Positions 3,972 through 63,458 are shown, counted from the stretch's first letter. The stretch: 64,000 bases of DNA from a virus (IMGVR_UViG_2703718833_000007:1-64000); one strand, 5' to 3'. The notes: a model not told the origin generated them from the letters alone. Translations and numbers: made by a program.

Positions 3972-4510
3972 TATGTTATTGCCTCCGGTTTACAAAATGT
4001 ATTTTCATCTGGTGAAGAAATACCGTGGTTATGGTGATAGCCATATTTTATTTCAGCTTCACGCCGCGCCCTTACAGCATCATCATATGATTTCCCCCAG
4101 TACACGCTTATAGTTTTTCTTTTGCCATTTTTACTCCATACTACTATTCTTGATCTCCATACTTTTTTTATTTTATCCCAATAAACGCCAACGCAACCGC
4201 TAGTGTTATCTATTGGCTTCTTTGCGTTTCTTGCATTTTCCCACGCATAAACAAGTCTTAAATTTTCAATTCTATCGTCACCTGGCATGTGATTTATATG
4301 ATCAATCATCATTCCATCAGGGATAGGGCCATTAAACATTTCCCAAACAATTCTATGTCTAAGAAAATATTTTTTATTAATAACTATTTGCCAATAACCT
4401 ATGCTCCCCCTACATCCTGCCACATCACCGGGTTTTATTCTTGTTTTGTATCTGTGTTCTTTCCAGTACAAAACACCATTGCTATAAATAAATAATTTAC
4501 TCCATTCCAT
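3971..4510 (-). CDS. HNH endonuclease with AP2 domain (homing-endonuclease-like), copy 1
   Basis: HNH_3-like DHINH...N motif, AP2-like segment, C-terminal KYGYHHNHG; start taken at internal ATG 4510 to avoid 160-nt overlap. Confidence 0.75.
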   Translation of the reverse strand: MEWSKLFIYSNGVLYWKEHRYKTRIKPGDVAGCRGSIGYWQIVINKKYFLRHRIVWEMFNGPIPDGMMIDHINHMPGDDRIENLRLVYAWENARNAKKPIDNTSGCVGVYWDKIKKVWRSRIVVWSKNGKRKTISVYWGKSYDDAVRARREAEIKYGYHHNHGISSPDENTFCKPEAIT

Positions 4511-5655: not shown

Positions 5656-6426
5656 TTATTCAGAAAAAATAATATTTATCAGTTCATTAAATCTTGATTC
5701 GTAGAAATGAGGTTGAGTCTCTCGCGGATTAGTTGGATTGGTTACGTTTTTCGCGTACAAACGACCGTAAGCTGTGACGTTCCAAAATCTCTTTTCGCCG
5801 CAACGTGCTTTACGATACTTGCGTTCCACAATACCTTTGCGCTCAAGTATTGGATAAACTTCACGCGCATTCATGCCAACGTTATTTTCATCTAGCAATG
5901 CTGTAAGAGATTTTGTCACGCGGCTTGATCCATCCACCGCATCAGCAGGCGCATCAATAGCATAATGCGGAAGGATAGGAGGAATATTATATTCCTTTTC
6001 AATCTTCTGAAGCATTCCTAATTTTCCTGAATTACTCATATTCAGCATTCTACTCGCTGTTTCAGCGAAGGCTAGAACATTGCCGATCTGCGCGTTACCG
6101 TAATTTGGAACAGCATTTTGCCGTACTGCATTTTCAAGTTCCTGCCAGCGGTCAACGAGCCGCGCCGTAAATTCAGGGCAGTTTTGAGCCACGACAATGA
6201 TGCTATCTCGTTTGCCCTGTTCGCCTTCAAAAATATAGACATTAACAAACCTGTTAGGACTAAGTGATTGTTTATTCTCAACTTTCCCCATTGGGGGTAG
6301 TTGAATTATCCCCCTCTGTGCCATGCGTTCTATAGACTGTTTTACTTTATCGTGACGATTGCCTAGTAGTTCCGCAATTTCAAAACTATTCATCTTAACA
6401 GCATCAAAAACCATTAAGTCACTCAT
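5656..6426 (-). CDS. Rha-family phage regulatory protein / antirepressor-like
   Basis: N-terminal region resembles phage regulatory protein Rha; start set at ATG 6426 with GGAG RBS. Confidence 0.55.
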   Translation of the reverse strand: MSDLMVFDAVKMNSFEIAELLGNRHDKVKQSIERMAQRGIIQLPPMGKVENKQSLSPNRFVNVYIFEGEQGKRDSIIVVAQNCPEFTARLVDRWQELENAVRQNAVPNYGNAQIGNVLAFAETASRMLNMSNSGKLGMLQKIEKEYNIPPILPHYAIDAPADAVDGSSRVTKSLTALLDENNVGMNAREVYPILERKGIVERKYRKARCGEKRFWNVTAYGRLYAKNVTNPTNPRETQPHFYESRFNELINIIFSE

Positions 6427-6557
6427 TGTAATTTCTCCGTAAAACGCTCTACAACGCAAAATCCCACCGCGTAACCCATTTGCACAGGTTGCAGTGTCTT
6501 ATTGCGTCAGAGGCGCTTTCAGGTGGCTAATTTTTGATTTACAGACTGGTAGGTAGG

Positions 6558-6792: not shown

Positions 6793-7845
6793 TCAAATAG
6801 CGCCTGCGCGTGTATCGCGTAGCGTTTTTGGTTTAAGCAGGAAATCAAGTGTCGCAGTGAAGCCATCGCCGAAGTAAAAGTCCGAAGCCTTGATCTTGAA
6901 CGCTTCAAAGTAGGCGATAAAGCCGTTAATGCTTTTGTCTTTCAGGTAGTCAGTGAACGCATAGATCTTACGTTCCAAATCCCGATCCAGTTCAGCAGGT
7001 GGCAACAGGCCATCAAACGTGATGTTAAACTCATTAACCACATCGGCAGCGTTTACAGTAGATGACAGCTTGCGCCATTGTTCAGCGTCAGCCAGATACC
7101 CATCGAATTTAGTTACCCGGCAAATGTTGATAGGCTTAGGTGTTCCGCCACGGCTACGCCATTGCGTTAAAGCCCACTCAATCACTAATGTGATCTCATC
7201 CTCCGTATACGCTTTGCGTGTTTTTGTTTCTGTCAGTAGTTCGATGAATGGCTTAGCATCACGACATTTGCATCCTGCCTTGTCGTTGTAGAATGCCAGG
7301 CAACGCAATGCAGCATCGCTTATCTGATAGTCACTATCCTGATTGACTTCTTTTCTTTTTATATTTTTCTTTTCTTCTTCTGTTTCTTTTTCTTCTTCTA
7401 ATTCTATTTCTAATTCATGACCCTTTCCTGACCCGGTCATGACCATATCATGACCTTTTGTTGTTGGATTGATTAACTTCTCTAATTTTAATTGCTCCTT
7501 AGCTGTGTTTATGGCTGCCCTGTATGCGCTTTTAGAAGTCATTGATTGGTCCAGCCTTTTCAATAACTTTAAACAAGTTATGTGGCCTTGAGAGCATTCG
7601 AATAAACCAATTTCGATAAAGTATTTCATCATTTCTTCTATGCGTTTTTCAGTCGATCCGACGTTTCGCGCGATGATTCTGGCGTCATGTCGTAGGTCAA
7701 ATGTAAGGTTGTGCTGATCTACGTCATAAGTTATCAGTTCTAGGCAATACCAATAAAGCCCGTAGCCTTCCAGGCCATAATCTAATAAAACGTTTTGAAG
7801 TTTTTCATCGCGGTTCGCATCGCTATCATGCTTAAACCACTTCAT
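6793..7845 (-). CDS. phage replication initiation / replisome organizer protein
   Basis: 350 aa; N-terminal replisome-organizer-like domain, acidic linker, conserved phage C-terminal domain; first large gene of rightward-type operon. Confidence 0.6.
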   Translation of the reverse strand: MKWFKHDSDANRDEKLQNVLLDYGLEGYGLYWYCLELITYDVDQHNLTFDLRHDARIIARNVGSTEKRIEEMMKYFIEIGLFECSQGHITCLKLLKRLDQSMTSKSAYRAAINTAKEQLKLEKLINPTTKGHDMVMTGSGKGHELEIELEEEKETEEEKKNIKRKEVNQDSDYQISDAALRCLAFYNDKAGCKCRDAKPFIELLTETKTRKAYTEDEITLVIEWALTQWRSRGGTPKPINICRVTKFDGYLADAEQWRKLSSTVNAADVVNEFNITFDGLLPPAELDRDLERKIYAFTDYLKDKSINGFIAYFEAFKIKASDFYFGDGFTATLDFLLKPKTLRDTRAGAI

Positions 7846-7848
7846 AGA

Positions 7849-8106
7849 TCATTCCTCCGGCAACATCACTACATAGACATCACTGAATGCATCAAGACGA
7901 CAAACAAATCCTTTATCCATTAATGCGGCGAATGCATCATGTACCGTATGAACAGGAAGTTCACACATTGCGGCTACTTCTTTGCGTGATGCATCATGTA
8001 CCCGTCCTTTGTTATCTGCCTTTTCAGCCAGAGCCATTAAGACAAGTTTTTGAATCGGGCTGTTAAGTTTTACGTTCCATGCTTTGCTAATAATGTTCAT
8101 GCTCAT
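7849..8106 (-). CDS. small DNA-binding protein in Cro/CII position
   Basis: 85 aa; divergent from repressor gene across a 306-bp regulatory region. Confidence 0.4.
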   Translation of the reverse strand: MSMNIISKAWNVKLNSPIQKLVLMALAEKADNKGRVHDASRKEVAAMCELPVHTVHDAFAALMDKGFVCRLDAFSDVYVVMLPEE

Positions 8107-8412
8107 TGTATTTTCTCCTATGGTTAAAATGAACGCGCTGGCGGGTATCCCATTAGCATTAGATAGCAGTGACTGACCGCTGAACAGATCCCGCCGTTGC
8201 GTGATATTTGTTTTTCGCTTCGCAGCGACACCGGATTTTTAAAGAGCTTTTAAGGTATGTGCCTTTTGTGCTTTCCATTATCTTTTTTCTTGCATCCTTG
8301 CAAGTATGGCCTTACCTTGTCTGCAAGTTTACAGAATGGCGTTAACAGGTCAAGGATTGAAAATTACATTTTGTGACTTGCATCAAATTTTTTTAGGTTA
8401 TAGGGTAGCGAC
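8107..8412. promoter_or_regulatory. divergent immunity-region promoter/operator region
   Basis: Intergenic between divergent repressor and cro-like genes; CTTGCA/TGCAAG repeats at 8289-8304, 8316-8327, 8377-8382. Confidence 0.5.
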
Positions 8413-9060
8413 ATGAAAACAAAATGGTATGACTTAGCGAAACAACTCATGCGGGCGCAGGGTATGAGTCAGGATTCATTGGCAGATCTCATGGGGATCA
8501 CAAAAGGCGGCTTGTCACACTGGCTTAACGGTCGCCGCGAGCCGAATCTTGAAGACATTGCGCGGATCATGCGGGCGCTTGGGCGTCGGCAATTCACTGT
8601 TACACATGATGGAATGGTCATTGATGATTCTGTTTCTAACACGTTGCCGGGAGCGCCACCGCGTGATTTAGGCAGTTACCCGGTTGTTGACTGGAAGGAT
8701 GTAGTAAACAATATGGAAGATGCAAGGCGATCAACATTACCACACGTTACGACTAGCGTTATTTGTTCAGATGATAGTTACTGGCTGGTAGCTAAAGGCG
8801 AATCAATGAACGCGCCGCAAGGATTGAGTATACCAGCGGGGACGATGATACTTGTCGATCCGCACGCGCCAGCTATTGATGGCAAACTGGTTATAGCCCA
8901 ATTGGAGGAGGGGCAGATACCGACGTTTAAACAGTTGATTATTGATGGAGGCAGAAAACTTTTGCGTTCACTGAATCCGTTGTATCCGCCAATCCCTATG
9001 AATCCAGAATCTAAAATCATAGGCGTGGTAGTGGATGCGAAGATCGTAAACCTGCCATAA
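8413..9060 (+). CDS. cI-like repressor (HTH-XRE plus S24 LexA-type peptidase domain)
   Basis: 215 aa; N-terminal HTH, C-terminal S24 peptidase with GESM serine motif and downstream lysine. Confidence 0.85.
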   Translation: MKTKWYDLAKQLMRAQGMSQDSLADLMGITKGGLSHWLNGRREPNLEDIARIMRALGRRQFTVTHDGMVIDDSVSNTLPGAPPRDLGSYPVVDWKDVVNNMEDARRSTLPHVTTSVICSDDSYWLVAKGESMNAPQGLSIPAGTMILVDPHAPAIDGKLVIAQLEEGQIPTFKQLIIDGGRKLLRSLNPLYPPIPMNPESKIIGVVVDAKIVNLP

Positions 9061-9066
9061 ACATTA

Positions 9067-9090
9067 GCCGCCTGGTGGCGGCTTTTCTTT
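9067..9090 (+). terminator. rho-independent terminator after repressor gene
   Basis: GCCGCC-TGGT-GGCGGC hairpin followed by TTTTCTTT. Confidence 0.5.
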
Positions 9091-9183
9091 GCCATAAAAA
9101 CACCAAAACGTAAACAGAAAACGTTATTTATTGTTTAAATATCAATGACATATAAAATATTTTAAAAAAGTATACAAAATGGA

Positions 9184-9212
9184 TTGACTCGGTGTTTTAC
9201 GTGGCGTATATT
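9184..9212 (+). promoter_or_regulatory. PL-like sigma70 promoter
   Basis: TTGACT, 17-bp spacer, TATATT. Confidence 0.5.
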
Positions 9213-9253
9213 GCGAGTCAAAGGAGGAAGCAAGGCAGGGAAAGAAGGTTACT

Positions 9254-9291
9254 TGCTCTTTAACAATCTGGTCAGCCGCTGGAAGTGCGGC
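9254..9291 (+). promoter_or_regulatory. nut-like site (boxA plus boxB hairpin)
   Basis: TGCTCTTTAACAA matches the boxA consensus; 8 nt downstream a GCCGC-TGGAAGT-GCGGC hairpin. Confidence 0.45.
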
Positions 9292-9346
9292 AATTAACGA
9301 AGATGATTTTTATTAAGTATCATCAAGGATATAAGGAGATCAGATC

Positions 9347-9637
9347 ATGACCGTTACAATCATGTATGGCAAATGTGATAGCAAAATAAACGCCAGGGAA
9401 CGCAGAAGAATAAAAAGAGAAAACGAAAGAAAATCATCACCTGCAATTAATAAAACAGACAATGTGGATAAAGCTATTCGCTTTGCAAACGAGGAAAGAT
9501 GCAAACCAAATAGCATTAAAGAACGTCGCAAAGGAGCAGTAAAATGGTATACGGAAAATGAAAGCGGCAACTACTACCACGCAACGCAACCACGCCAGTT
9601 AGGGGAAAAACCCCTTGATAAAGTCCGTTACCATTAA
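9347..9637 (+). CDS. N-like transcription antiterminator (arginine-rich motif protein)
   Basis: 96 aa, basic; N-proximal NARERRRIKRENERK resembles lambdoid N arginine-rich motif; first gene after promoter and nut-like site; AAGGAG RBS. Confidence 0.5.
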   Translation: MTVTIMYGKCDSKINARERRRIKRENERKSSPAINKTDNVDKAIRFANEERCKPNSIKERRKGAVKWYTENESGNYYHATQPRQLGEKPLDKVRYH

Positions 9638-9786
9638 TACAAAATGTAAATAATCGGAGGTGACATTATGGTTATTCAGGCGCTCCAATTCAAACTGGCG
9701 GTAGCGGAAATGCTTCATGATGCCGAAATGTGGAGCGCCGCGAATAAAGCCTTGTATGTAGTGTTAACAGCGAAGGAGATCAAAGA

Positions 9787-10440
9787 GTGAAAACAGAGTT
9801 ACACAAAAAACTGTGGACGATTCAGCAAACGCTGAACGCGCCTAAAAATCAGCGTAATAATTTCGGCGGGTATAATTACAGATCAGCGGAGGATATTTTA
9901 GAAGCGGTTAAACCACTGCTTCAAAATATCACGCTGACTGTTAGTGATGAAATTGTCCTGATCGGCAATCGCTATTACGTGAAAGCAACGGCGACGCTAA
10001 GCGACGGTGAAGATGAAATAGCGGTAACGGCTTACGCCAGGGAGGAAGAAAGCAAGAAGGGAATGGACGCAAGCCAGCTAACAGGAGCAACATCAAGTTA
10101 CGCGCGGAAATATGCTTTGAACGGATTGTTCTGCATTGACGACGCCCGCGATCCTGATACTGACGCATACGCGAAGCAGACAGGCCAGCAGCCACGCCAG
10201 CAGAAAAATACGCCAAAACAGCAACCTAATCAGAAACCACAGCAGCAGAAAGCGCCGCCAAATCCTGATGAGGTGTTAGCACGTTTTTGTGATGCGGCAG
10301 CGAAAGCGCAGGACGAAAAAACACTAAGGGAAATATTCGGTAAATGTTGGAAGCTGTTACCTGAAAATTCAGAGCAACGGCAGAAAGCGCAAGATTGTTA
10401 CCAGATCCGTAAGGATGAACTGAATGGAACAATTAACTAA
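9787..10440 (+). CDS. Erf-family single-strand annealing protein
   Basis: 217 aa; Erf-like N-terminal domain, Q/P-rich C-terminus; GTG start with AAGGAG RBS. Confidence 0.7.
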   Translation: MKTELHKKLWTIQQTLNAPKNQRNNFGGYNYRSAEDILEAVKPLLQNITLTVSDEIVLIGNRYYVKATATLSDGEDEIAVTAYAREEESKKGMDASQLTGATSSYARKYALNGLFCIDDARDPDTDAYAKQTGQQPRQQKNTPKQQPNQKPQQQKAPPNPDEVLARFCDAAAKAQDEKTLREIFGKCWKLLPENSEQRQKAQDCYQIRKDELNGTIN

Positions 10441-11020
10441 AAAATGCACAAAATGCGGCAGAATCCTGCCGCTTAACTCTTTCCTGAAGCACAAATCATG
10501 CAAATACGGCGTAGCTGGTACATGTAAGGATTGCGCAAAGGTATACAGGGAAGCCAATAAAGACAAAATAGCCGAGCAAAATAGAAGATGGAGGGAAAAA
10601 CACAAGGAAGAAATTCGAGAAAAGGATAGAAAATACTACGAAGAACACAAAGAAGAATGTAATAAGCGAGCGAAAGAGTATCGTAAAAATAACAAAGAAA
10701 AAATATTGGAAAAGAAAAATAATTGGGTAAGAAGAAACGAGGAAAGGTTAAAGGAGTATAGGAGACAATACCACGAAGATTATAAAGAAAGAAATAAGGC
10801 GGAACTAAAGGCAAGAACAAAACTAAGCAACGCCATTAGAGATGGTAAAGTATTAAGGCCAAATAAATGTGATAGGTGCGGGAAAAAGTGCACTCCTGAT
10901 GGGCATCATTGGAATTATGCATATCCGCTAAATGTTGTTTGGTTATGCCGTTCTTGTCATAAGATAGTGCATTTTAAGTTTGGGTGTATACACGAAAACA
11001 TTAACGGGGAGATCGGTTAA
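10424..11020 (+). CDS. zinc-ribbon / Lys-Glu-rich / HNH-like nuclease-motif protein
   Basis: N-terminal CxxC...CxxC, highly charged KE-rich middle, C-terminal CxxC...HH...CxxCH HNH-like motif; A-rich composition. Confidence 0.45.
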   Translation: MEQLTKKCTKCGRILPLNSFLKHKSCKYGVAGTCKDCAKVYREANKDKIAEQNRRWREKHKEEIREKDRKYYEEHKEECNKRAKEYRKNNKEKILEKKNNWVRRNEERLKEYRRQYHEDYKERNKAELKARTKLSNAIRDGKVLRPNKCDRCGKKCTPDGHHWNYAYPLNVVWLCRSCHKIVHFKFGCIHENINGEIG

Positions 11021-11424
11021 TGAGCTTAAATTTAATCACACTTGGCGGTAATATTGGGAATGATATGAAAGTTCGCTACACGCAAAACGGGAAGGCGATT
11101 GGTAGTTTTTCGTTAGCTGTAACGAATGGATACGGTGATAATAAACGGACAATGTGGATCACTTGTCTGGTATTTGGCGAGCGTGCGGAAAAATTAGCGC
11201 CACATATCCGCAAGGGCGGGAAAATAGTGGTAAGCGGTCGCCTGGACGTTCGGCAATATGACTGGAACGACGGCACGAAGGGGACTGCGGTAGAAGTGGC
11301 GGTTAATGAGTTCGAATTTTGCAGCAGAAACGATCAGCAACCACAGCAACAGCAGCAACAGCAGAATAATGGCGGTGGATATGAAGAGCCGCCAATGGAT
11401 TTTGATGATTCAATTCCTTTTTAA
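11020..11424 (+). CDS. ssb: single-stranded DNA-binding protein
   Basis: 134 aa; OB-fold SSB pattern, Q-rich linker, acidic C-terminal tail ending DDSIPF. Confidence 0.85.
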   Translation: MSLNLITLGGNIGNDMKVRYTQNGKAIGSFSLAVTNGYGDNKRTMWITCLVFGERAEKLAPHIRKGGKIVVSGRLDVRQYDWNDGTKGTAVEVAVNEFEFCSRNDQQPQQQQQQQNNGGGYEEPPMDFDDSIPF

Positions 11425-11439
11425 ATCAATAGGTTAGCG

Positions 11440-11718
11440 ATGGTCGATTATTTAAAACCGCCACCGCCACCGCGAACAAAAGAGCAAGTATTAAAAGAAG
11501 CCCGTGATCAAATCGATCATGGGCTTTTTTTATGTGGCACGGCAGCGGAACGGATGGCAAAAAGATTCAGTGACCTGTACGCAAAACAAATATGGTTCGA
11601 CAACTGGCAGGCAAGTTTTTATCCACTGCAAAGAAAACCGGATATGCACTGGCCTGAATATGTCGATCCGCGTATGCGCAAATATCGCGGGCGTATGGGC
11701 CAGGTCATTAACGATTAA
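11440..11718 (+). CDS. hypothetical protein (92 aa)
   Basis: Operon-context ORF. Confidence 0.4.
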   Translation: MVDYLKPPPPPRTKEQVLKEARDQIDHGLFLCGTAAERMAKRFSDLYAKQIWFDNWQASFYPLQRKPDMHWPEYVDPRMRKYRGRMGQVIND

Positions 11719-11957
11719 TGAGGTATCAAATCATGATCGAAGAAAAAGAAGTTGATAAGGAAATGCCTGACACAGCAGATGACTACGTTACTTTTGATGG
11801 CGGCCTGTATGAGTTCGATACGTCGGCTGGGTGGACGGATAAGTGGCCTCTTCCTACTCGCCAGGAATTAATGGCGCGCAAATCATTCGGCGAAGATGCG
11901 GAACGCCTTGCCAATAACAAATGGCTTGATAAGTTCATTGCGGAGGGTGGCAAATGA
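11718..11957 (+). CDS. hypothetical protein (79 aa)
   Basis: ATGA start/stop coupling. Confidence 0.4.
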   Translation: MRYQIMIEEKEVDKEMPDTADDYVTFDGGLYEFDTSAGWTDKWPLPTRQELMARKSFGEDAERLANNKWLDKFIAEGGK

Positions 11958-12067
11958 ACCTTGCAAAAATTGCCGCATTGCTTGCGGCTTTGTCTATCGC
12001 TGTGCTGTATCTCAGTGTATCGCTTTATATCACGGTAGCGATCATTAAACTCATTACTAACATGTGA
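11954..12067 (+). CDS. small membrane peptide (37 aa)
   Basis: Single hydrophobic helix; GGAGGG RBS; overlaps upstream stop. Confidence 0.35.
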   Translation: MNLAKIAALLAALSIAVLYLSVSLYITVAIIKLITNM

Positions 12068-12075
12068 GGTTAATC

Positions 12076-12195
12076 ATGAAAGTCGGTAAGGATATTGTAA
12101 CGGTCGCGTTTTGCATTATTTGCTTCCTGTTTGTGGTTGTGTTTTGTGGCGGATTTGCTGCGTTGGTTAGCCTTATTTTTAGGGGGTTGCTGTAA
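12076..12195 (+). CDS. small membrane peptide (39 aa)
   Basis: Hydrophobic helix; GAGGT RBS; stop overlaps next start. Confidence 0.35.
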   Translation: MKVGKDIVTVAFCIICFLFVVVFCGGFAALVSLIFRGLL

Positions 12196-12467
12196 TGAAA
12201 ACATGGGATGCAAAGGCTGGCGATCTTGTTGTATTGCCTGAATATCGTGATGACCCTGGCATGGTTGTGCTGAATAAGACGTATAACGATTTTGAGCGCC
12301 CACTATTGGTTAAATATCTGGACGGAGAAATCATAGAACCGCGCTACTTTGATGAGATTGAACTAAAGGCACGCAATGTCCGCGTTAAGCCGTTCCGGGC
12401 TTATGTTGAAGACCACTGGCGTAAATTGTTCGCCGGACTGAATGGGATGTACGGCGTATGGCTATAA
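12195..12467 (+). CDS. hypothetical protein (90 aa)
   Basis: Operon-context ORF. Confidence 0.4.
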   Translation: MKTWDAKAGDLVVLPEYRDDPGMVVLNKTYNDFERPLLVKYLDGEIIEPRYFDEIELKARNVRVKPFRAYVEDHWRKLFAGLNGMYGVWL

Positions 12468-12658
12468 AATTAGTGAAAGTTAAACACCTGAAAGGCGGTG
12501 AGACGATCCGCGCGTGGTATGGATACGAATTTACTGTATCTGCATTTTATTTCGGTCCTGGTGGTCAGGTGACACTATTTGACGAAGATTTATGCGAGGT
12601 TGGGCAATGGCATCTTGAACAATATGTTGAGGTGTTAAATGAAAATCAAGTTTTATAA
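12458..12658 (+). CDS. hypothetical protein (66 aa)
   Basis: Operon-context ORF. Confidence 0.35.
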   Translation: MAIKLVKVKHLKGGETIRAWYGYEFTVSAFYFGPGGQVTLFDEDLCEVGQWHLEQYVEVLNENQVL

Positions 12659-12971
12659 AAGTTATGATTCAGCTACTAACAAGCTATCACTATTTATTGA
12701 GTTCGAACGCCGGATCGTGGTTGTTCCTTATTCTCGGCGCTTTAATGATGCAGCAGGGCGGCGACAGTTCGCGTTAGATATGTTGTTACGCGGTTGCGGC
12801 CTTATGCGCCCGCTATCTGATTTAAAACGGATGATGCCTGGATCGTTCGGTCAGATTGATGAAATAGAAATAAGTCAGGAAGAACTAAAACGGGCGCGTG
12901 ATTTATTCCTTTCAAGCGAAGGAAACCAGTTTAATCCAGAAACTGAAATGAAATGGCATCACCCACTATAA
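12639..12971 (+). CDS. hypothetical protein (110 aa)
   Basis: Operon-context ORF. Confidence 0.4.
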   Translation: MKIKFYKSYDSATNKLSLFIEFERRIVVVPYSRRFNDAAGRRQFALDMLLRGCGLMRPLSDLKRMMPGSFGQIDEIEISQEELKRARDLFLSSEGNQFNPETEMKWHHPL

Positions 12972-12984
12972 AAGGATAAATATC

Positions 12985-13605
12985 ATGAACGACATCAAAA
13001 CAGCTTATTCACTCGGCAGCGAAGGCATGTTAATCACTCGCTACACTGAAGACGCAAGTTTTCATGAAGTAGAAATTAAAGATTATCACGAAGTATTGAA
13101 AGATATGGAAGCTGGCAAGTATGACGCTGATTTGAATCTGGCGTTACAGATTGTTGATATTGTGATGGATGCAAACATCCGCGATTATGTGTCTTTAAGT
13201 GCGGAAGAAAAAACATCGGTAGCTCGCTATGTCTTCTGTCTTGCTTTCGTAAAACGCATGGAAGAGGAATATGGGCGCGTACCAGTGCCGGAAGAGATTG
13301 ACCCGCTTGCGTTCGGAAGCGCTGTTATCTTCCCGCTTGATGAAAACCGTATGGGAAGCATTGCGCTGTATTCTATGCGTGGCATGATGAAAAAACTCTT
13401 TGAAGTTAAGGTGATGCAGAAATGTATTGATGAAGGCCACAAAGAGGAAGAAATAAAATTTTTCATGCCATTGTTTTACGGTGAAATGGTCGGAAATGAT
13501 ATGCGTGCAAATGATCTAGGTGTACAGGCGGCTATTGCGGTGCTTAATGATGCACGGAAAAATTCACAGCCAATGCCGGAACCGGAAAAACGTGTACTGC
13601 ATTAA
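12985..13605 (+). CDS. hypothetical protein (206 aa)
   Basis: Operon-context ORF. Confidence 0.45.
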   Translation: MNDIKTAYSLGSEGMLITRYTEDASFHEVEIKDYHEVLKDMEAGKYDADLNLALQIVDIVMDANIRDYVSLSAEEKTSVARYVFCLAFVKRMEEEYGRVPVPEEIDPLAFGSAVIFPLDENRMGSIALYSMRGMMKKLFEVKVMQKCIDEGHKEEEIKFFMPLFYGEMVGNDMRANDLGVQAAIAVLNDARKNSQPMPEPEKRVLH

Positions 13606-13703
13606 CAGCGTGATTGCGATCACATGAACATACATTTTGTGTTGTGATTGCATATCCGTTTTGTAAACTTAAATTAAAGGTTTACATCGCGGAGGAAAGT
13701 AAG

Positions 13704-13922
13704 ATGGAACGTGAATACATGCTTTATTGCGTTGAGGGTGGCGTAGGTAGCGATGCCTACGTCGCCGGGAAAAGCTATCCAGCAGATGAAGTGCTTTCTA
13801 ATATGCACTTCCGTGAAAATGAAAACCAGGTGTCTGTGTGGAAGCGATGCGTTGATGGTATTGAAGTCGTTAGCCTTGAAAGATATTTGGGTAAATTCGA
13901 CTACGGATTAATTGAGGCTTAA
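13704..13922 (+). CDS. hypothetical protein (72 aa)
   Basis: Start at ATG 13704 with GGAGGAAAG RBS. Confidence 0.4.
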   Translation: MEREYMLYCVEGGVGSDAYVAGKSYPADEVLSNMHFRENENQVSVWKRCVDGIEVVSLERYLGKFDYGLIEA

Positions 13923-14020
13923 CTATGGACGAATCATTGCTATTCATGTGCATTTGCTGGGGTTTTATTGCCTTATGCCTGTTTATCAGGTGGTTTATTG
14001 AATACCACATGAGGTGATAT

Positions 14021-14215
14021 ATGGAACAGAAAACTGATTATAGAATACCTGACAACCTGAAATTGGTTGGTATTGGTTTTGGTTGTCGTTTTGTATCTGA
14101 CGTAAACGGGGCTATTTATTTAGTGCGCATCATTGATGGCGTTCAGCATATAAGAAGGCTAGGACTTTATATCAAAGCATTCAGGAGAGGTTATTTGAAA
14201 ACTCATGAAATTTAA
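14021..14215 (+). CDS. hypothetical protein (64 aa)
   Basis: Operon-context ORF. Confidence 0.35.
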   Translation: MEQKTDYRIPDNLKLVGIGFGCRFVSDVNGAIYLVRIIDGVQHIRRLGLYIKAFRRGYLKTHEI

Positions 14216-14408
14216 ACAGTATAAAGAATGGAAGATTCCAGAAGAAGCAACAAAGGCAGCGCCAGGAAGTTTTTCTGGCGTTTACTTTTATATGGGTGGT
14301 AAATGGTATTTCGGCAGCAGGCCGGATCACTATTATCAAGAAGTATGCAAATCTCACACCTGGGATATTAATGAACGCGTGCAAGGTGGTGTAATAGACG
14401 AGGTTTAA
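14205..14408 (+). CDS. hypothetical protein (67 aa)
   Basis: Operon-context ORF. Confidence 0.35.
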   Translation: MKFKQYKEWKIPEEATKAAPGSFSGVYFYMGGKWYFGSRPDHYYQEVCKSHTWDINERVQGGVIDEV

Positions 14409-14409
14409 A

Positions 14410-14646
14410 ATGGTTAGGGCTTTTTTAAAGTGGTTAGGTGAGTGGCTTTTGGCTACGCTTTTCGTTTTTTTGACGTTCATTGCAGTAATGATCATCTTTC
14501 TTCTTTCCATGATGTTCCTTACATGGTCAGTACCAGAGTTTATGGATATTGGTAAGGTTCTTGATTTCGCTCGTGCTTTGTTGCTTTGTAGTGCATTTAT
14601 TGGTTTTTGCAGGACTGTTTCGCCTGATTGGGATGATGAATGGTGA
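14410..14646 (+). CDS. small membrane protein (78 aa, two predicted TM helices)
   Basis: Two hydrophobic segments. Confidence 0.4.
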   Translation: MVRAFLKWLGEWLLATLFVFLTFIAVMIIFLLSMMFLTWSVPEFMDIGKVLDFARALLLCSAFIGFCRTVSPDWDDEW

Positions 14647-14650
14647 TCCT

Positions 14651-14884
14651 ATGGCCTTGTTCAATATGTCAGAGCCGCAATTTAACGCCGTAAAGACTGC
14701 CGCCCGCGCAGCGCTTTCGGCCTGCAAAGCGGAAGTAGAGAAAAACGGCTACAGCGATAAAGCTACGCGGCTGATATTAGAAAAGCATTATCGCAAGGTC
14801 GCCCCACTAATCAGCATTGAGCGCTTTGTGTGGTTGGTGGGGTATTTAAACAACCGTTGGGGAACGGAACAGGATTATTTCTAA
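14651..14884 (+). CDS. hypothetical protein (77 aa)
   Basis: Start at ATG 14651 with GGTGA RBS. Confidence 0.4.
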   Translation: MALFNMSEPQFNAVKTAARAALSACKAEVEKNGYSDKATRLILEKHYRKVAPLISIERFVWLVGYLNNRWGTEQDYF

Positions 14885-14893
14885 GGGGGCGTA

Positions 14894-15433
14894 ATGAAAA
14901 ATGATTTTGGAGGCAGCCACACTCCTAAGGAAATTAAAGATCTATGGCAGACGCCTAAACCAGTTTTCAGAGGAATGGATCGGGAATTTGAATTCGTCGC
15001 GGATGTGGCGGCAAACAAGGCAAACGCGCTAGTTCCGCGATATATAACCGAAGAAATGGACACGTTGCATTATCCGTGGGGAGCGGTGGCAATGCCTGGC
15101 GAGTATGTCTGGCTTAATCCGCCATATTCTAAACCGGGGCCATTCGTTGAGAAGGCGGCATTAGAACATCAACGAAATCACATTGGCTGTGTAATGCTGT
15201 TGCCCGCTGACATTTCTGTTAGCTGGTTCATGAACGGCGTGGAGACGGCAAACGAATGCCGATTAATCACGCGCGGGCGTCTGGCGTTTATCAATGCTGA
15301 GACAGGGAAACCAGCAAGCGGAAACAACAAAGGCAGCTTGTTTTTGATCTGGCATCCACGGTGCAGACATGAATGTATTTTTACGCAGATAACACGTAAA
15401 GAGCTATATGCAAGAGGTGCAGATAATGACTAG
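14894..15433 (+). CDS. phage DNA N6-adenine methyltransferase (Dam-like)
   Basis: 179 aa; WLNPPYS matches the (D/N)PPY catalytic motif of N6-adenine methyltransferases; AAGGGGG RBS. Confidence 0.7.
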   Translation: MKNDFGGSHTPKEIKDLWQTPKPVFRGMDREFEFVADVAANKANALVPRYITEEMDTLHYPWGAVAMPGEYVWLNPPYSKPGPFVEKAALEHQRNHIGCVMLLPADISVSWFMNGVETANECRLITRGRLAFINAETGKPASGNNKGSLFLIWHPRCRHECIFTQITRKELYARGADND

Positions 15434-15854
15434 TGCGGCAGATTTACTACGAATCGCAGCGGAAACAATAGAGCAAAGGGGTAAACAAAACGGATACGAC
15501 AGAAAAGAGGAAAAATCAGCGCCAAAAATAGCCACTATTTACAACGCTAAGAAGGGTACAAATTTAACCCCGCTTGATGTATGGGATCTGTTGATTTGTC
15601 TCAAGGAGGCGCGTTTAGAGGCCATTTTGGTAAATGGTTCTGACCCTACTGATACTTTGGTTGACTTGATTAGCTACAGCGCACTAAAAGCTGAGCAGAT
15701 ATTAAGCGATCATGAGGAAGAGCAAAAGAAAAAACAGTTCACTGCTCTTAATCCTCAATGTGGTTGTATTTCAACTCGGCTTGATTTGAGTTTTGACAGA
15801 TCTGAAGCTATTCGCGATAAGAGGTATGACCCAAATGAAAAAGGTGGCAATTGA
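15426..15854 (+). CDS. hypothetical protein (142 aa)
   Basis: Start at ATG 15426 with AAGAGGTG RBS. Confidence 0.4.
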   Translation: MTSAADLLRIAAETIEQRGKQNGYDRKEEKSAPKIATIYNAKKGTNLTPLDVWDLLICLKEARLEAILVNGSDPTDTLVDLISYSALKAEQILSDHEEEQKKKQFTALNPQCGCISTRLDLSFDRSEAIRDKRYDPNEKGGN

Positions 15855-16338
15855 CAGGTTATTAGCCTGCGTTTATGTCGCCGTTTTCGTGATCATCAAC
15901 CTTATTGTTAACCATTGCGGCCCGTGGGTAATTCCGATCACCACGGTAGCCGCTGTGTGTGTCAATATGATGATCCGTGACTTCTTGCTGTATGACGGCG
16001 GCTTGAAATGGTCTGCTACAACATGCGCCGCCGCTGGCGCAATCACGGTAATGATAAATTACGATGCTGGAATGGTAGCGATCGCGTCATTCGTTGCGGT
16101 TGTTTCCGGTGCGCTTATATCTGGAGGTGTTTACCGGGTTTTGCCTGGTGATTTCGATTCTAAGCGCTGGCCTGCAAACATAGCTTCAGCCATCGGGGAT
16201 GCGTTAATTTTCCCGACGCTATCGTTTATGGCGTTTATGCCGGAAATATCAGCGATGCAGTTTATCTCAAAAATGGCAGCGGTAACGGTGATCACTATCA
16301 TCATGCGCCGCTATTTCACGTTTGAGGGTAGAAAATGA
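15835..16338 (+). CDS. integral membrane protein, possible YhhQ-like queuosine-precursor transporter family
   Basis: 167 aa, multiple TM helices; segment VYRVLPG..SKRWPANIASAIGDALIF resembles a conserved region of YhhQ-family transporters as recalled; tentative. Confidence 0.3.
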   Translation: MKKVAIDRLLACVYVAVFVIINLIVNHCGPWVIPITTVAAVCVNMMIRDFLLYDGGLKWSATTCAAAGAITVMINYDAGMVAIASFVAVVSGALISGGVYRVLPGDFDSKRWPANIASAIGDALIFPTLSFMAFMPEISAMQFISKMAAVTVITIIMRRYFTFEGRK

Positions 16339-16862
16339 ATTGGGATGATTATTTTATATACAATCCGGACACAGGTAAGTTGTACTGGAAATATAGAAAT
16401 GACATAGAAGAATCAAGGCGTAAACAATGGAATGCGTGTAATGCTGGTCATGAGGTTGGACATATTGGCGGAAGCGGTGGGTGTCTTAATACAGCGCTTA
16501 CCGTTGGCGGAAAGCGTTATAATTTAAAAGTACATAGAATATGTTACGAGATGTACTATGGGCCAATACCTGAAGGTAAGGAGGTTGATCATATAAATCA
16601 CGTTAAAACAGATAATCGAGCCGTCAATCTTGGATTAAAAGACCATAAAGATAATATGCGCAACATGTCTTTAATGGTAAACAATACCAGTGGGTGCGCT
16701 GGTATCCATAAAAATAAACATGGTAAATGGGTTGTTAGAATCGGTGGAGGCAAAAGAGGTAATAGAATTTATATAGGGTGTTTTTCTGATATCAATGACG
16801 CAATAAAAGCTAGGCGCGACGCTGAAAGAAAGTATGGCTATCATGAAAATCACGGCAAATAG
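16335..16862 (+). CDS. HNH endonuclease with AP2 domain, copy 2
   Basis: VDHINH...N HNH_3 motif, AP2-like segment, C-terminal KYGYHENHGK. Confidence 0.8.
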   Translation: MNWDDYFIYNPDTGKLYWKYRNDIEESRRKQWNACNAGHEVGHIGGSGGCLNTALTVGGKRYNLKVHRICYEMYYGPIPEGKEVDHINHVKTDNRAVNLGLKDHKDNMRNMSLMVNNTSGCAGIHKNKHGKWVVRIGGGKRGNRIYIGCFSDINDAIKARRDAERKYGYHENHGK

Positions 16863-17121
16863 AACAACCACGCCACCGCCGCGCGGCTTTGCCCGTGCTG
16901 TATTCCTGGCTAACGACCGGGCCATCAATCGTGCTACGCTCAACCGCGTTTTACCGGACTGAAATTTACAAAATGGCGTCATTGCGTGATGTGGATCACA
17001 TAATGGCGCTTTTCACCTTGTTCTGACGTATCCGTTTTGTATACTTCAAACAAGCAAAATGCTCTTTAAAAATCCGGCAGCGCTGAAATGCGTAGAAATC
17101 ACCTGAAAAGGAGAGAGCATT

Positions 17122-17298
17122 ATGCCTTTTGATAATTACCAATGGCATGACGACTATGAACGAGAAAGCGTCATGCGTGCAATGTGCAATGTATGCAGCA
17201 CGAAGAAAGGAGACTGCAACGAGTGCAACGAATGTTTAGATCATTGGCTAAGGGCCGGACACGCCGAAAGGCGGAGCGAAACAGAAAATCAAAAATAA
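17122..17298 (+). CDS. small Cys-rich protein (58 aa)
   Basis: CNVC...CNEC pattern; AAAAGGAGAG RBS; below track cutoff. Confidence 0.3.
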   Translation: MPFDNYQWHDDYERESVMRAMCNVCSTKKGDCNECNECLDHWLRAGHAERRSETENQK

Positions 17299-17312
17299 TC
17301 GGGGTGATTTTT

Positions 17313-17918
17313 ATGCAGAACCCTAAAAAACCCATAAGACGCCGTTGCAAATGCTGCGGCGTTTTTTTTGAACCTAAATATCACAATCAAACGTGGTGCA
17401 GCGATGAATGTCTGGAAGAACTGAAGTTTGATCAGCTATGCCGCGATCGTGAAAAGGCTATGAAGGCTATGGAGCGGAAGAAACGCCGCGATAGCCAGCG
17501 TGAGGAACGCAACCGGAAGCGGAAGCAGTTAAATCCGCGTAGTTATTGGTTAAAGCAGGCGCAAAACGTGTTTAACGCATATATTCGCGAACGTGACGCA
17601 GGACAGCCGTGTATATCTTGCGGGACTTATTATTATGAGCAATGCGGAGCAGATGCGGGGCATTACAGGACGGTAGCAGCAGCTGGACACCTTCGATTTA
17701 ACGAGGATAACGTAAACCTACAATGTCGACATTGCAATCAGGTATTAGACGGAAACATAGAGGCATATCGTCCGGCACTGATTCGAAAAATTGGCCTTGC
17801 CAGGGTGGAGGCGTTGGAGAACAACAACGAAACCCATAAATGGACGATCGAAGAATGCAAGGAGATCATTAAAGTTTACCAGGCGAAATTGGACGCCCTA
17901 AGGAGAAAGGCGGCATGA
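17313..17918 (+). CDS. ninG: NinG/Rap-family recombination-associated protein
   Basis: 201 aa; multiple Cys/His clusters; recalled similarity to lambda NinG; GGGGTGA RBS. Confidence 0.65.
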   Translation: MQNPKKPIRRRCKCCGVFFEPKYHNQTWCSDECLEELKFDQLCRDREKAMKAMERKKRRDSQREERNRKRKQLNPRSYWLKQAQNVFNAYIRERDAGQPCISCGTYYYEQCGADAGHYRTVAAAGHLRFNEDNVNLQCRHCNQVLDGNIEAYRPALIRKIGLARVEALENNNETHKWTIEECKEIIKVYQAKLDALRRKAA

Positions 17919-18322
17919 ATGAATATACATTTAGCCTACCTTACCCGCCATCGAATAATAGGTATTACCGGCATTCACGAGGTTTTCATTATATCAGTAA
18001 AGTGGGGAAAGAATACCGGGAACAGGTAAGAGACATCATCGAGCTATTAAATTTAAACATCAACCTATCTTGCCGACTGGCAATTACCATTCATGCCGCG
18101 CCGCCGGATAACCGGATAAGAGATCTGGATAATATCACCAAATGCCTTTTTGATAGCCTTACTTACGCCGGATTCTGGACCGACGACGGGCAGATCGATT
18201 CTATAAAAATTGTTCGCTGCCGGAAGGTAAAAGGCGGGCGCTTGTTTATTAAGATCCGCGAACGCGGCGACCTACTACCGGATATTGACGAATACGAGAC
18301 TAATATGTGGGGTGAGCAATGA
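17915..18322 (+). CDS. rusA: RusA-family Holliday junction resolvase
   Basis: 135 aa; RusA-like pattern; AAGGAG RBS. Confidence 0.7.
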   Translation: MNEYTFSLPYPPSNNRYYRHSRGFHYISKVGKEYREQVRDIIELLNLNINLSCRLAITIHAAPPDNRIRDLDNITKCLFDSLTYAGFWTDDGQIDSIKIVRCRKVKGGRLFIKIRERGDLLPDIDEYETNMWGEQ

Positions 18323-18501
18323 AAAACGAAGTTAAAGATCTGCAAATAGATATTCAGTGCGATGAGCATGATTTAGCTACAGTCAGAAAAATCCAGGCTT
18401 TTCATATGCGAGAATTGCTTGCATTGAAAGAGCTTGAGAGGAAGTTAGTCCAGTCTATTTCTGATCGTAAACGCCTTATTGCTCGTTACGGGGGCAAATA
18501 A
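18319..18501 (+). CDS. hypothetical protein (60 aa)
   Basis: Coupled ORF. Confidence 0.35.
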   Translation: MKNEVKDLQIDIQCDEHDLATVRKIQAFHMRELLALKELERKLVQSISDRKRLIARYGGK

Positions 18502-19223
18502 TGAATCTGGAGTCAATTCTTAAATTCCACTTCCCAAAATCACCGCATTTGTCAGATGAAAGTCGTGGCACGTCACCGGACGCGCTTAATACTACGGATG
18601 CGCTAACTGCCGCTGGTATGGCGCAATCGCGCGTAGAGCTTGGTTATAGCGCTTTTTTAGGGAAGATGGAACTATCACAAGCCGAAAAGCACAGGGCCGT
18701 AGTTTTGCTTACAGAGCGTTTAAGAGCTATGGCAAAAGATTATAAATACGTTATGGAACTGGACGAGGTGCGACGAAATGATCTCATTATTCTTGTTGCC
18801 GTTTTCGCATTTCGGGATTATTGCCAGAGTGCCGCGACGGAAAAAACTTGTATGGAGTGCGGCGGATATAAATTTACGTTTGACGAGTATGGGGAAAAAC
18901 ACCTTTGCAAAAAATGCAAGGGGCATGGGAAAGTTCTTAATCATTGCAAACAATGCAAGGGCCGTGGAGAAGTGCCTGATAAAGCAGCCAGCGAAGCGGC
19001 GGAAATGCCCGTGTTCAAAACGTGCCAGCATTGCGGCGGGCGCGGGTACTCGCGTTTCCCTGTAGATCTTGTCCGGCAGGCGGTTAATCAGCTTGTCTTT
19101 CCTGTAAGCCGATCAACATGGTGGAAGAAATACCGTGCTTTCTATGAAGACGCCATTGCTGAATTGTTCAAAGAAGAGGCGCGGGCTGATAACGAAATTA
19201 AACGAGTGACGCGGGGTGAATGA
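18501..19223 (+). CDS. DnaJ-type zinc-finger protein in late-antiterminator (Q) position
   Basis: 240 aa; four CxxCxGxG repeats; located after nin-like genes where lambdoid Q lies. Confidence 0.4.
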   Translation: MNLESILKFHFPKSPHLSDESRGTSPDALNTTDALTAAGMAQSRVELGYSAFLGKMELSQAEKHRAVVLLTERLRAMAKDYKYVMELDEVRRNDLIILVAVFAFRDYCQSAATEKTCMECGGYKFTFDEYGEKHLCKKCKGHGKVLNHCKQCKGRGEVPDKAASEAAEMPVFKTCQHCGGRGYSRFPVDLVRQAVNQLVFPVSRSTWWKKYRAFYEDAIAELFKEEARADNEIKRVTRGE

Positions 19224-57620: not shown

Positions 57621-58856
57621 CTACGATAACCGCGCATTCAACATGGCTATCTGTTCGTCGTTCATGTCATCAATCCACATACCGTAAATTTCATACACCA
57701 TCTGCGCAGTTTCATGCCCCATTTGGCTGGCTATAAATGCCGGGTTCGCTCCTGCCGTCAACAGCCAGCAGGCAAAAGTATGCCGCGTATGGTACGGATT
57801 ACGGCGGCGAATACCAGCACGTTTTACTGCTGCATTCCACCTTGCCCCCAAACTGCTTACCGAGTAATAAGGTTTTTGTTTTCCGTTACACACCCTGGGC
57901 ATGAAAACAAAATGCAGTTTTTGCTTTTCGGTTCTGCCGTACTCCCGATGATAAAAGGTGATTTCGCTTTTGCGATGATGCCCGGTCAGTTTGTATTGCT
58001 CCTTCAGTGCTTCAAGAGCAGGCTGCAGTAGTGTTACTGTTCGGATCCCGGCATTTGTTTTTGGGGGACCGAACATATCAAGTATCGTCAGGTTTCTTCT
58101 GACATTCACTATTCCCTTTTCGAGATCCACATCCTCCCACGCCAGAGCTGCCAGTTCCCCGTGACGAAGTCCTGAGTAAACGGCAAATTTCCACAAGTTC
58201 TGGCTCTGTCCTTTTTCACTTTCCATTAATGCATTGAATTCTGTTTTAGATAACGGATCAGGCTTTATTCTGTTTCGCTGTAATTTTTTTACTCCTTCAA
58301 ATGGTTTGGTTGATATAAATCCCGACTGATACGCAAAACGCAACAGCGAACAGAGCAGGGCGATATAGTTATCAACTGTGCGCACGGTTCTTCCTTTTTT
58401 GTTGGATCTTGGATTATCCAGGTAAAGCGTTTCTCCATGCAGCAGTTCATTCCGGTAGTTTAAGATATCGCTATAACGAATATGTGATATCGGGGTACTT
58501 TCACAAATTATTATTCTGAGTGTTTTTAATTGTGATTTTGTTTTCTTCATTGTGTATGTTGTTAACTCTGTCTCTTTAATTTTTGTCCAGATATCACAAA
58601 GCTCTCCGAACGTTTTTATGACTCTCGTTGTCACCATTTTTGCCCCAGTGCTGGACTGGGGAAAACGTCTTAAATACTCAAATTCACCGGAGTTTATTTC
58701 ATGAACTATCAGCGCTCTTAAATTTCCGGCCTTTTTAATATTACTGTTTGTAATCTCCCAGCCTTTTAATGTTTCCCGACATCGTTTTCCTCGAAACATG
58801 AACCAGATGCGAATGTATCTACCTCTAATCTCGACACCTGTTGGTAATTTAGACAT
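57621..58856 (-). CDS. intR: Rac prophage tyrosine integrase
   Basis: 411 aa; tyrosine recombinase C-terminal motifs (R...HxxR...Y). Confidence 0.9.
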   Translation of the reverse strand: MSKLPTGVEIRGRYIRIWFMFRGKRCRETLKGWEITNSNIKKAGNLRALIVHEINSGEFEYLRRFPQSSTGAKMVTTRVIKTFGELCDIWTKIKETELTTYTMKKTKSQLKTLRIIICESTPISHIRYSDILNYRNELLHGETLYLDNPRSNKKGRTVRTVDNYIALLCSLLRFAYQSGFISTKPFEGVKKLQRNRIKPDPLSKTEFNALMESEKGQSQNLWKFAVYSGLRHGELAALAWEDVDLEKGIVNVRRNLTILDMFGPPKTNAGIRTVTLLQPALEALKEQYKLTGHHRKSEITFYHREYGRTEKQKLHFVFMPRVCNGKQKPYYSVSSLGARWNAAVKRAGIRRRNPYHTRHTFACWLLTAGANPAFIASQMGHETAQMVYEIYGMWIDDMNDEQIAMLNARLS

Positions 58857-58857
58857 A

Positions 58858-59073: not shown

Positions 59074-59151
59074 CGCATCACCTCTGGCAGGCGCCAATGT
59101 TAGACTGAAATTGACGCCCGATGTTGATTATTAATAATAAGCTATGAAGTT

Positions 59152-59548: not shown

Positions 59549-59604
59549 AATTTTTCTCATAAAAAATATTTCAAGTTGGCGGTGCATTACACCGCCAGGC
59601 TGAA

Positions 59605-63384: not shown

Positions 63385-63458
63385 GTTTTTCTCCTTAATT
63401 AAGGTTGAGCGAATACCTGCCATTTCTGGCATAAATTCAGTTTCGAATAGTCAATTAA

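Follow-up and report, generated by a model that had tools for sequence, protein, structure and literature searches.

The DNA analysed here, referred to throughout as the window, is a 64,000-nt stretch of viral sequence (IMGVR_UViG_2703718833_000007:1-64000). On its plus strand, a prophage repressor gene is followed by a terminator, a promoter, a site composed of boxA and boxB (nutR1), and a gene encoding a small basic protein:

8413-9060, plus strand: prophage repressor with HTH and S24 peptidase domains, homolog of mEp021 gp15/Rep021 (Pfam, PHROG)
9066-9083, plus strand: intrinsic terminator of the repressor transcript, AGCCGCC-TGGT-GGCGGCT followed by TTTTCTTT
9173-9182, plus strand: TACAAAATGG motif adjoining the -35 hexamer, candidate operator or upstream promoter element
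9184-9212, plus strand: early promoter TTGACT-17-TATATT, matching 10 of 12 consensus positions
9254-9266, plus strand: boxA of nutR1, the sole exact match to TGCTCTTTAACAA in 64 kb
9275-9291, plus strand: boxB of nutR1, GCCGC-UGGAAGU-GCGGC, a predicted hairpin with stem covariation
9347-9637, plus strand: Gp17 homolog, 96-aa N-like antiterminator with an arginine-rich motif at about residues 13-30 (98% identity to mEp021 gp17; phrog_271)

Repressor, terminator and early promoter

The repressor gene, located on the same strand as the module and upstream of it, was assigned from matches to Pfam (HTH_3, 4.9e-13; Peptidase_S24, 1.4e-18) and PHROG (phrog_4, 1.1e-41) families, and its counterparts in mEp013 and mEp021 are annotated as cI repressor or putative repressor. 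A sequence-only reading of this DNA had placed a terminator hairpin directly after the repressor gene, and such a hairpin is indeed found six bases past the stop codon (9060). It comprises a stem of seven pairs, six of them G-C, followed by TTTTCTTT, and folds at -14.4 kcal/mol (z = -2.4). A terminator is annotated at the matching place in both mEp021 and mEp013, and among relatives sequence variation is confined to the loop.

Approximately 100 bases of A+T-rich DNA separate this terminator from the early promoter, which had also been recognized as near-consensus from the sequence and represents the top sigma-70 match in the 10.7 kb scanned (7800-18500), a span across which promoter-like matches are not enriched (15 found vs 22.9 expected). 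The promoter is conserved in mEpimmI relatives, and more distant relatives possess TTGCAT, a 17-nt spacer and either TATAGT or TATATT. The adjoining TACAAAATGG motif belongs to a pattern, TACARAATGG, present in seven copies in the window compared with 0.32 expected. Several of these copies lie 1-2 nt upstream of -35-like hexamers, and the motif also precedes the promoter of the N-like gene in two distantly related loci (L047 and L049). From its sequence and placement, the motif may be considered a candidate operator or upstream promoter element.

The Gp17 homolog

The first gene past the promoter, preceded by an AAGGAG Shine-Dalgarno sequence 8 nt upstream of its ATG, encodes the 96-aa protein that had been described as basic and arginine-rich. 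Both properties are borne out by a pI of 9.96, a net charge of +11, and nine Lys/Arg among the 18 residues of the motif KINARERRRIKRENERKS (residues 13-30). The protein is 98% identical to Gp17 of phage mEp021 and shares its conserved arginines, as an ortholog would: within the mEpimmI family (17-19 members) there is no variation at A16, R17, R20 or R24 and hardly any at R19 or R21. AF2 places helices at residues 16-30 and 36-51, with low confidence for the remainder (pLDDT 56); this model fits an N-type protein that is largely disordered, and proves nothing. The product may be described as a small basic protein with an N-terminal arginine-rich helix, the helix being an AF2 prediction.

Residues 2-95 of the Gp17 homolog match phrog_271, 'anti-termination protein N-like' (5.9e-11), a family that may itself include mEp021-like sequences and that is also matched by lambda N (9.2e-24). 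As judged from profile searches, the Gp17 family is very narrow, since an exhaustive search of 1.84 billion representatives yielded one real distant relative (P0053). Two long proteins also returned by this search were taken for low-complexity matches. Searched against PDB sequences, neither the single protein nor the family profile gave more than chance matches. A scan of genome contigs of species representatives found no relatives; these representatives probably lack this prophage.

Three nut sites

In nutR1, the exact boxA proposed from the sequence is present in a single copy in the 64 kb, where base composition predicts approximately 0.003. It is followed, after a spacer of 8 nt (9267-9274), by the proposed boxB-like hairpin, the RNA fold of which is both the minimum-energy and the centroid structure. 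As with the other nut hairpins, which have z-scores of about 0 in context, the energy of this hairpin is not distinctive (z = -0.26 in a 51-nt context), and its support derives from covariation. The 7-nt loop, UGGAAGU, is neither a clean GNRA tetraloop nor a lambda-type pentaloop, and would fit a GNRA-like loop only with one base looped out.

The sequence-only reading had described a single nut site. While nutR1 was upheld, the number was not, as two further sites were identified in the window, one of them on the opposite strand:

8215-8228, minus strand: boxB of nutL, UCGCU-GCGA-AGCGA, minimum-energy hairpin
8236-8248, minus strand: boxA of nutL, AGCTCTTTAAAAA, two mismatches to boxA, position conserved in 43 loci
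8326-8353, minus strand: candidate promoter of the opposite (replication) operon, TTGACC-16-TAAACT, predicted from 9 of 12 consensus positions
17060-17072, plus strand: boxA of nutR2, TGCTCTTTAAAAA, one mismatch
17080-17093, plus strand: boxB of nutR2, GCGC-UGAAAU-GCGU, minimum-energy hairpin

NutL, with a spacer of 8 nt, lies directly ahead of the replication genes, and the candidate promoter (8353-8326, minus strand) stands upstream of it; in relatives its loop varies to GUGA and GCAA, both of which remain GNRA. A search for repeated operators common to both promoter regions revealed nothing convincing except the ACAAAATGG motif. NutR2, with a spacer of 7 nt, is conserved in related loci, in which it follows gp17 by approximately 7.0-8.1 kb and its outermost pair is G-U, A-U or C-G. 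The unit of boxA, short spacer and boxB is found at all three sites, with GNRA loops represented by GAAA, GCGA, GUGA and GCAA.

Comparative analysis of the boxB stem

Nut sites were compared across 46 loci: the window, mEp021 and 44 IMG/VR loci that carry a gene for a relative of the protein. Both nutL and nutR2 were found in essentially every locus covering their positions, and the loop-closing C-G pair was invariant across the 46 loci. Loops were of the form U-GAAA-U at nutR2 and at nutR1 of three divergent loci, U-GCGA-A, U-GUGA-A or U-GCAA-U at nutL, and U-GGAAG-U at nutR1 sites of the window type. These sequences give a boxB consensus in which a GNRA tetraloop has U on its 5' side and U or A on its 3' side; the common nutR1 carries one extra G.

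Compensatory changes were observed in the stems, which include GCCGC/GCGGC, GCUAC/GUAGC, UGCAC/GUGCA and (G/A/C)CGC/GCG(U/U/G). In an alignment of 20 sequences (A3), which mixes paralogous sites with close orthologs and uses a structure derived from one member sequence, boxB stem pairing held in 86% of cells, with changes on both sides in four of the five boxB pairs. The observed covariation score was matched by none of 500 shuffles, and sliding the 3' partner by 1-3 columns reduced pairing from 86% to 17-55%. Pair counts were taken from A3; an alignment to which distant relatives had been added (A4) was left unused, its 6-nt and 7-nt loops being out of register. An Rfam scan of the mEp021 locus, covering the nut sites and the extra insert of that phage, gave no meaningful match.

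The exhaustive profile search also defined a single distant branch (P0053 and P0056), encoding a protein 38-42% identical to that of the window. Contigs of this branch carry an S24 repressor, terminator, promoter, nut site, N-like gene, 39-aa (kil-like) gene, Erf and SSB, with the nut site consisting of GCTCTTTAACAA, 6 nt and (A)CGCU-GAAA-AGCG. On one contig, a cro-like gene is followed by a second nut site (CGCTCTTTAACAA, 6 nt, UUGCU-GAAA-AGCAA), corresponding to the classical two-site arrangement of lambda or P22; the two stems around the GAAA loop, CGCU/AGCG and UUGCU/AGCAA, again represent a compensatory change. Given that the N-like protein and the nut site are co-conserved in these distant relatives, the comparative data support, independently of the literature, the view that protein and RNA site form a functional pair.

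Relation to the mEpimmI phages

Between 8100 and 9800, the window DNA is 92-97% identical to that of phages mEp013, mEp554, mEp044, mEp021, mEp515 and mEp010, and the gene order of the window is common to the annotations of mEp021 and mEp013. Of 5426 complete E. coli genomes, 35 contain similar prophages. By these sequence comparisons, the genome context of the window is that of mEpimmI, and 9066-9637 is the early regulatory module of a prophage belonging to the mEpimmI (mEp021) group of E. coli phages.

Experiments on Gp17 were performed in mEp021, and their results are taken here from the summary of Valencia-Toxqui et al. 2023 (Arch Virol 168:92) given in PMC11893012. This source attributes early antitermination in mEp021 to Gp17, which it calls N-lambda-like and in which arginines 17, 19, 20 and 24 are conserved in all 48 genomes studied. 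It lists three target sites, with nutR1 ahead of gp17, nutR2 past gp32 and nutL upstream of the repressor gene. It further reports, for mEp021 and the mEp collection, binding of Gp17 to boxB RNA and read-through dependent on Gp17 and on host NusA, NusB, NusE and NusG, and states that the mEpimmI group, though classed as non-lambdoid, needs host Nus factors (PMC11893012). In a second paper from the same laboratory, Gp17 serves solely as a His-tag control. The system is already known, its experimental description for phage mEp021 dating from 2023.

The three sites in the window (9254-9291, plus strand; 17060-17093, plus strand; 8248-8215, minus strand) agree with the published positions, which are given verbally only, and sites at matching positions occur in 43-46 related loci. 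In view of the 98% identity of the proteins and the published position upstream of gp17, the boxA/boxB at 9254-9291 is the published nutR1. The protein itself is labelled "hypothetical" in the records of mEp021 and mEp013, in the RefSeq prophages of the 35 of 5426 E. coli genomes, and in all named entries among 52 protein clusters.

The downstream operon and a model of antitermination

Between nutR1 and nutR2 lie genes for a kil-like peptide, Erf, an HNH protein, SSB and others. Past nutR2, a ninG-like gene and a rusA-like gene precede a Q-like gene. Elements relevant to antitermination within this operon are:

11972-11988, plus strand: intrinsic terminator in the early operon, 2.7 kb downstream of nutR1, -12.4 kcal/mol
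14258-14282, plus strand: predicted strong terminator-like hairpin in the early operon, 11-bp stem, -17.5 kcal/mol, z = -4.6
17343-17361, plus strand: predicted terminator-like hairpin with a T8 tail within the start of the ninG-like ORF, -17.2 kcal/mol, z = -4.0
18501-19223, plus strand: Q-like late antiterminator (phrog_127, 'anti-termination protein Q-like', 1.5e-78)

The terminator at 11972-11988 matches the TERM_2 annotated in mEp021 base for base and is a likely target of antitermination. Together with the hairpins at 14258-14282 and 17343-17361, the latter located 270 nt after the boxA of nutR2, it provides predicted intrinsic terminators downstream of the nut sites. The label "PL" previously attached to the module does not fit this operon, because it runs on past nutR2, ninG and rusA as far as the Q-like gene and is described in the literature as the right operon. 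The start of the operon resembles lambda PL in its content of N, kil-like, erf and ssb genes.

In lambda and P22, N-mediated antitermination involves an arginine-rich helix bound to boxB, a boxA that engages NusB and NusE, and the factors NusA and NusG. In the window, sequence and comparison show that the repressor transcript ends at the intrinsic terminator at 9066-9083, and that the transcript from the promoter at 9184-9212 starts with nutR1 and has the Gp17 homolog as its first gene. By analogy with lambda and P22, and from the published account of mEp021, the arginine-rich helix of Gp17 (residues ~13-30) would bind the GNRA-type boxB loop on the nascent RNA, NusB and NusE would be recruited by boxA, and the tethered complex, with NusA and NusG, would render RNA polymerase resistant to terminators. 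Transcription could then pass 11972-11988, be re-modified at nutR2 (17060-17093) and reach the Q-like gene, and nutL (8248-8215, minus strand) may act likewise for the opposite replication operon.

We consider it very probable that Gp17/nut antitermination is the best explanation of the module. All five elements named in the sequence-only reading are confirmed at their given positions, and its proposal that the plus-strand early operon is under N-type antitermination is supported by the 98% identity to Gp17, the three nut sites, the covariation, and the conservation in distant relatives.

Relationship to lambda N and P22 gp24

The Gp17 homolog works like an N protein. From sequence comparison, it is probably a remote relative of N proteins with an N-terminus closest to that of P22 gp24, and at the applied profile thresholds it is not a member of PF11438 or PF25694. 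Neither the window protein nor any of 19 family members matched PF11438 (N36), a profile against which lambda N scores 91 bits. Against PF25694 (N_peptide), the window protein scored 16.9 bits (E 0.0096), below the 27.9-bit gathering threshold; with a limit of E = 1, 17 of 19 family members gave a match (best 4.8e-4), none of them above threshold, and P22 gp24 scores 152 bits. In hhalign comparisons with lambda N, 16-17 residues of the arginine-rich motif aligned (INARERRRIKRENERK vs MDAQTRRRERRAEKQA) at a probability of 1.5-15%, with the comparison of family profile against family profile covering 17 columns at 15%.

The N-terminal 20 residues are clearly similar to those of P22 gp24 (MTVTIMYGK...NARERRR here vs MTVITYGK...NAKTRRH), and the likeness of N-terminus and arginine-rich motif is seen in MTVITYGKSTFAGNAKTRRHERRRK of P22 vs MTVTIMYGKCDSKINARERRRIKRENERK here, with similarity limited to approximately 20 to 55 N-terminal residues. 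The earlier description of the protein as "like lambdoid N proteins" is consequently apt for its arginine-rich motif and its P22 gp24-like N-terminus, but does not extend to membership of either Pfam family, nor to the group, which is non-lambdoid. The suggested alignment with the N proteins of lambda and P22 recovered the arginine-rich motif for the former and the N-terminus for the latter. A central (D-x-V-x-K-A-I) and a C-terminal (W-Y...G-E-x-P-L) motif that appeared common with P22/lambda N in MAFFT alignments were rejected, as profile comparison gave no support.

The RNA sites and gene arrangement bear further likeness to P22. P22 nutL consists of boxA GCTCTTTAAC, 9 nt, and boxB GCGCU-GACAA-AGCGC, which is close to the nutR2 and nutL boxB elements found here and forms a nearly identical hairpin with one extra loop base. 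The P22 gp24 gene likewise follows a repressor gene, promoter and nut site, and precedes kil and erf. However, the loops described here are GNRA tetraloops (with U-U or U-A flanks) or 7-nt loops, whereas that of P22 is a pentaloop, and, unlike in P22, there are three nut sites and the operon runs on to Q.

Lambda N, too, is small and basic, is disordered over most of its length and has its arginine-rich motif at the N-terminus; it is encoded by the first gene past an early promoter, acts through boxA and boxB sites and depends on Nus factors. Differences include Trp18 of lambda N, which has no counterpart at the aligned position in the window protein, and the lambda sites, which combine a degenerate boxA (CGCTCTTA), a spacer, and boxB GCCCU-GAAAA/GAAGA-AGGGC. 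Furthermore, lambda has two nut sites and an N operon that does not lead to Q, in contrast to the three sites and the operon reaching Q in the window.

Variation at nutR1 and alternative explanations

The nutR1 boxB, nutL and nutR2 sequences of mEp021 and the window are identical, and the terminators after the repressor gene and at TERM_2 match; both carry one and the same system. Nevertheless, mEp021 carries an insert of approximately 215 nt (annotated gp16) between promoter and nutR1 that is absent from the window, mEp013 and mEp554, and its nutR1 boxA is degenerate (CGCTCATTAACAA) where that of the window is exact (TGCTCTTTAACAA). It is possible, if rather unlikely, that the short nutR1 variant behaves unlike the mEp021 site, through autoregulation of gp17 by Gp17 or through partial Gp17-independent read-through, and that the clade shows minimal boxB recognition. 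In the first case, translation of gp17 might be controlled, as it is for lambda N, by Gp17 bound at nutR1, whose heptaloop boxB is preceded by a spacer able to pair with the region from the Shine-Dalgarno sequence to the AUG; in the second, partial read-through without Gp17 might result from the perfect boxA. Minimal recognition would mean that a plain U-U/U-A-closed GNRA tetraloop is read by a P22-like arginine-rich motif with no base looped out.

The lambda N leader is subject to autoregulation or RNase III processing, and the leader hairpin(s) of the window could in a similar manner mainly control gp17 translation or stability (by autoregulation or RNase III), with antitermination secondary, a role that could coexist with Gp17/nut antitermination. 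The 131-nt leader folds better than shuffled sequences (-32.3 kcal/mol, z = -3.0), and the fold predicts that the spacer segment AUCUGGUC (9266-9273) pairs with GAUCAGAU (9338-9345), a stretch flanked by the Shine-Dalgarno sequence and the start codon. This long-range pairing is nevertheless predicted from a single sequence, at an ensemble frequency of 0.03; it is absent in three loci whose leader differs (L043-L045), and close relatives, in which both segments hardly vary, are uninformative about it. The boxA and boxB unit also recurs at nutL and nutR2, far from gp17, and we regard a mainly leader-based role as very unlikely. Antitermination by host factors of the rrn type, in which boxA recruits NusB/NusE and other host factors and neither the hairpin nor the 96-aa protein is involved, is suggested by the 13-mer TGCTCTTTAACAA, which is the boxA (consensus) of E. 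coli rrn operons, and by its exact occurrence in the window where the mEp021 boxA is degenerate. Yet the NusB/NusE-dependent rrn system operates without a phage protein or a boxB-binding arginine-rich motif, whereas here a covarying boxB is accompanied by a dedicated protein with a conserved arginine-rich motif. Since all three sites, and distant relatives too, keep the hairpin and show covariation in it, and most relatives combine a degenerate nutR1 boxA with an unchanged boxB, a host-only mechanism appears highly improbable; PMC11893012 likewise attributes antitermination to Gp17.

Promoter-like matches that are not enriched, the commonness of short hairpins, and the lack of a significant match of the protein to curated N families might together be taken to indicate that an unrelated promoter, boxA-like string, hairpin and basic ORF, the last encoding some other nucleic-acid-binding protein, were assembled by chance. 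Against this stand the approximately 0.003 exact boxA copies expected, the threefold occurrence of the unit with conserved layout and covariation, the synteny and nut architecture kept in distant relatives, and the functional work published on a 98% identical protein. The probability of a chance assembly is negligible, and the comparative data effectively refute it.

Significance

With the system already published together with an antiterminator 98% identical to the window protein, the value of these results for discovery is small, and their chief value lies in correct annotation. The present analysis adds an explicit boxB consensus with covariation, an N-terminal link to P22 gp24, and a distant sister clade with two nut sites. 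These additions could guide structural and binding work on how RNA is recognized by N-type arginine-rich motifs.

Leader of the antiterminator gene and downstream elements

Secondary structure prediction for the leader of gp17, the N-like antiterminator gene, yielded a fold (z = -3.0) in which the spacer of the first rightward nut site (nutR1), AUCUGGUC (9266-9273), is paired with GAUCAGAU (9338-9345), the latter situated between the gp17 Shine-Dalgarno sequence and the AUG. Both boxB and an A+U-rich hairpin (9302-9325) would be enclosed by this predicted pairing, an arrangement reminiscent of how translation is controlled in the lambda N leader.

In most mEpimmI phages, additional G+C-rich DNA of about 215 nt is inserted between the early promoter and nutR1:

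about 4130-4360 of the mEp021 locus (L001): insert, also present in most IMG/VR relatives

This insert begins with a boxA-like GCACTTTAAAAATCAGG, is annotated in mEp021 as gp16 (37 aa), and looks structured, and an Rfam scan of the mEp021 locus returned no match to it. Among phages possessing the insert the nutR1 boxA is degenerate; a perfect nutR1 boxA and no insert characterize mEp013, mEp554, and the window (between 9212 and 9254).

Two further elements were identified downstream of the nut sites:

9668-9790: 40-aa ORF directly after the N-like gene, with a weak match to lambda Kil
17343-17361 (+): strong hairpin resembling a terminator and ending in a T8 tail (-17.2 kcal/mol; z = -4.0)

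The match of the 40-aa ORF to lambda Kil (PF06301) is sub-threshold (E 2.2e-4), with a further match to phrog_2055 at 1.3e-3, and distant relatives carry a 39-aa ORF at the same position. The hairpin falls within the first 50 nt of a ninG-like ORF, 270 nt downstream of the boxA of the second rightward nut site (nutR2), and may represent the terminator that nutR2 serves.

Leftward operon and chromosomal context

Examination of the region between the divergent promoters and the replication genes (8107-8412) revealed no cro-like gene. The minus-strand transcript comprises nutL followed directly by a gene for an 85-aa winged-helix protein related to the N-termini of replication initiators; a distant relative (L047) does possess a cro-like HTH gene, of 75 aa, with a nut site after it. 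Downstream of the replication genes, the leftward operon includes a candidate regulator:

5656-6459 (-): 267-aa protein with matches to PHROGs of anti-repressors (Ant) and of transcriptional regulators

At its right end (58800-64000), the window consists of Rac prophage DNA with xisR, recT, recE, racC, and kilR, and this DNA shows 100% identity to E. coli strain HSP425. It follows that the window is chromosomal and that the mEpimmI prophage adjoins Rac. An integrase gene lies near this end:

57621-58856: integrase gene, 411 aa

A repeated motif next to promoter-like sites

The motif TACARAATGG occurs seven times in the window, compared with an expected 0.32:

8330, 9173, 16967, 50192 (+): TACARAATGG
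38065, 38316, 42181 (-): TACARAATGG

At least four of these copies are followed, after 1-2 nt, by a -35-like hexamer that is itself spaced 17 nt from a -10. They belong to the early promoter, a candidate promoter of the repressor gene, and two sites on the minus strand among the tail genes. Distant relatives likewise carry the motif upstream of the N-like gene. TACARAATGG may function as an upstream promoter element or as one half-site of an operator.
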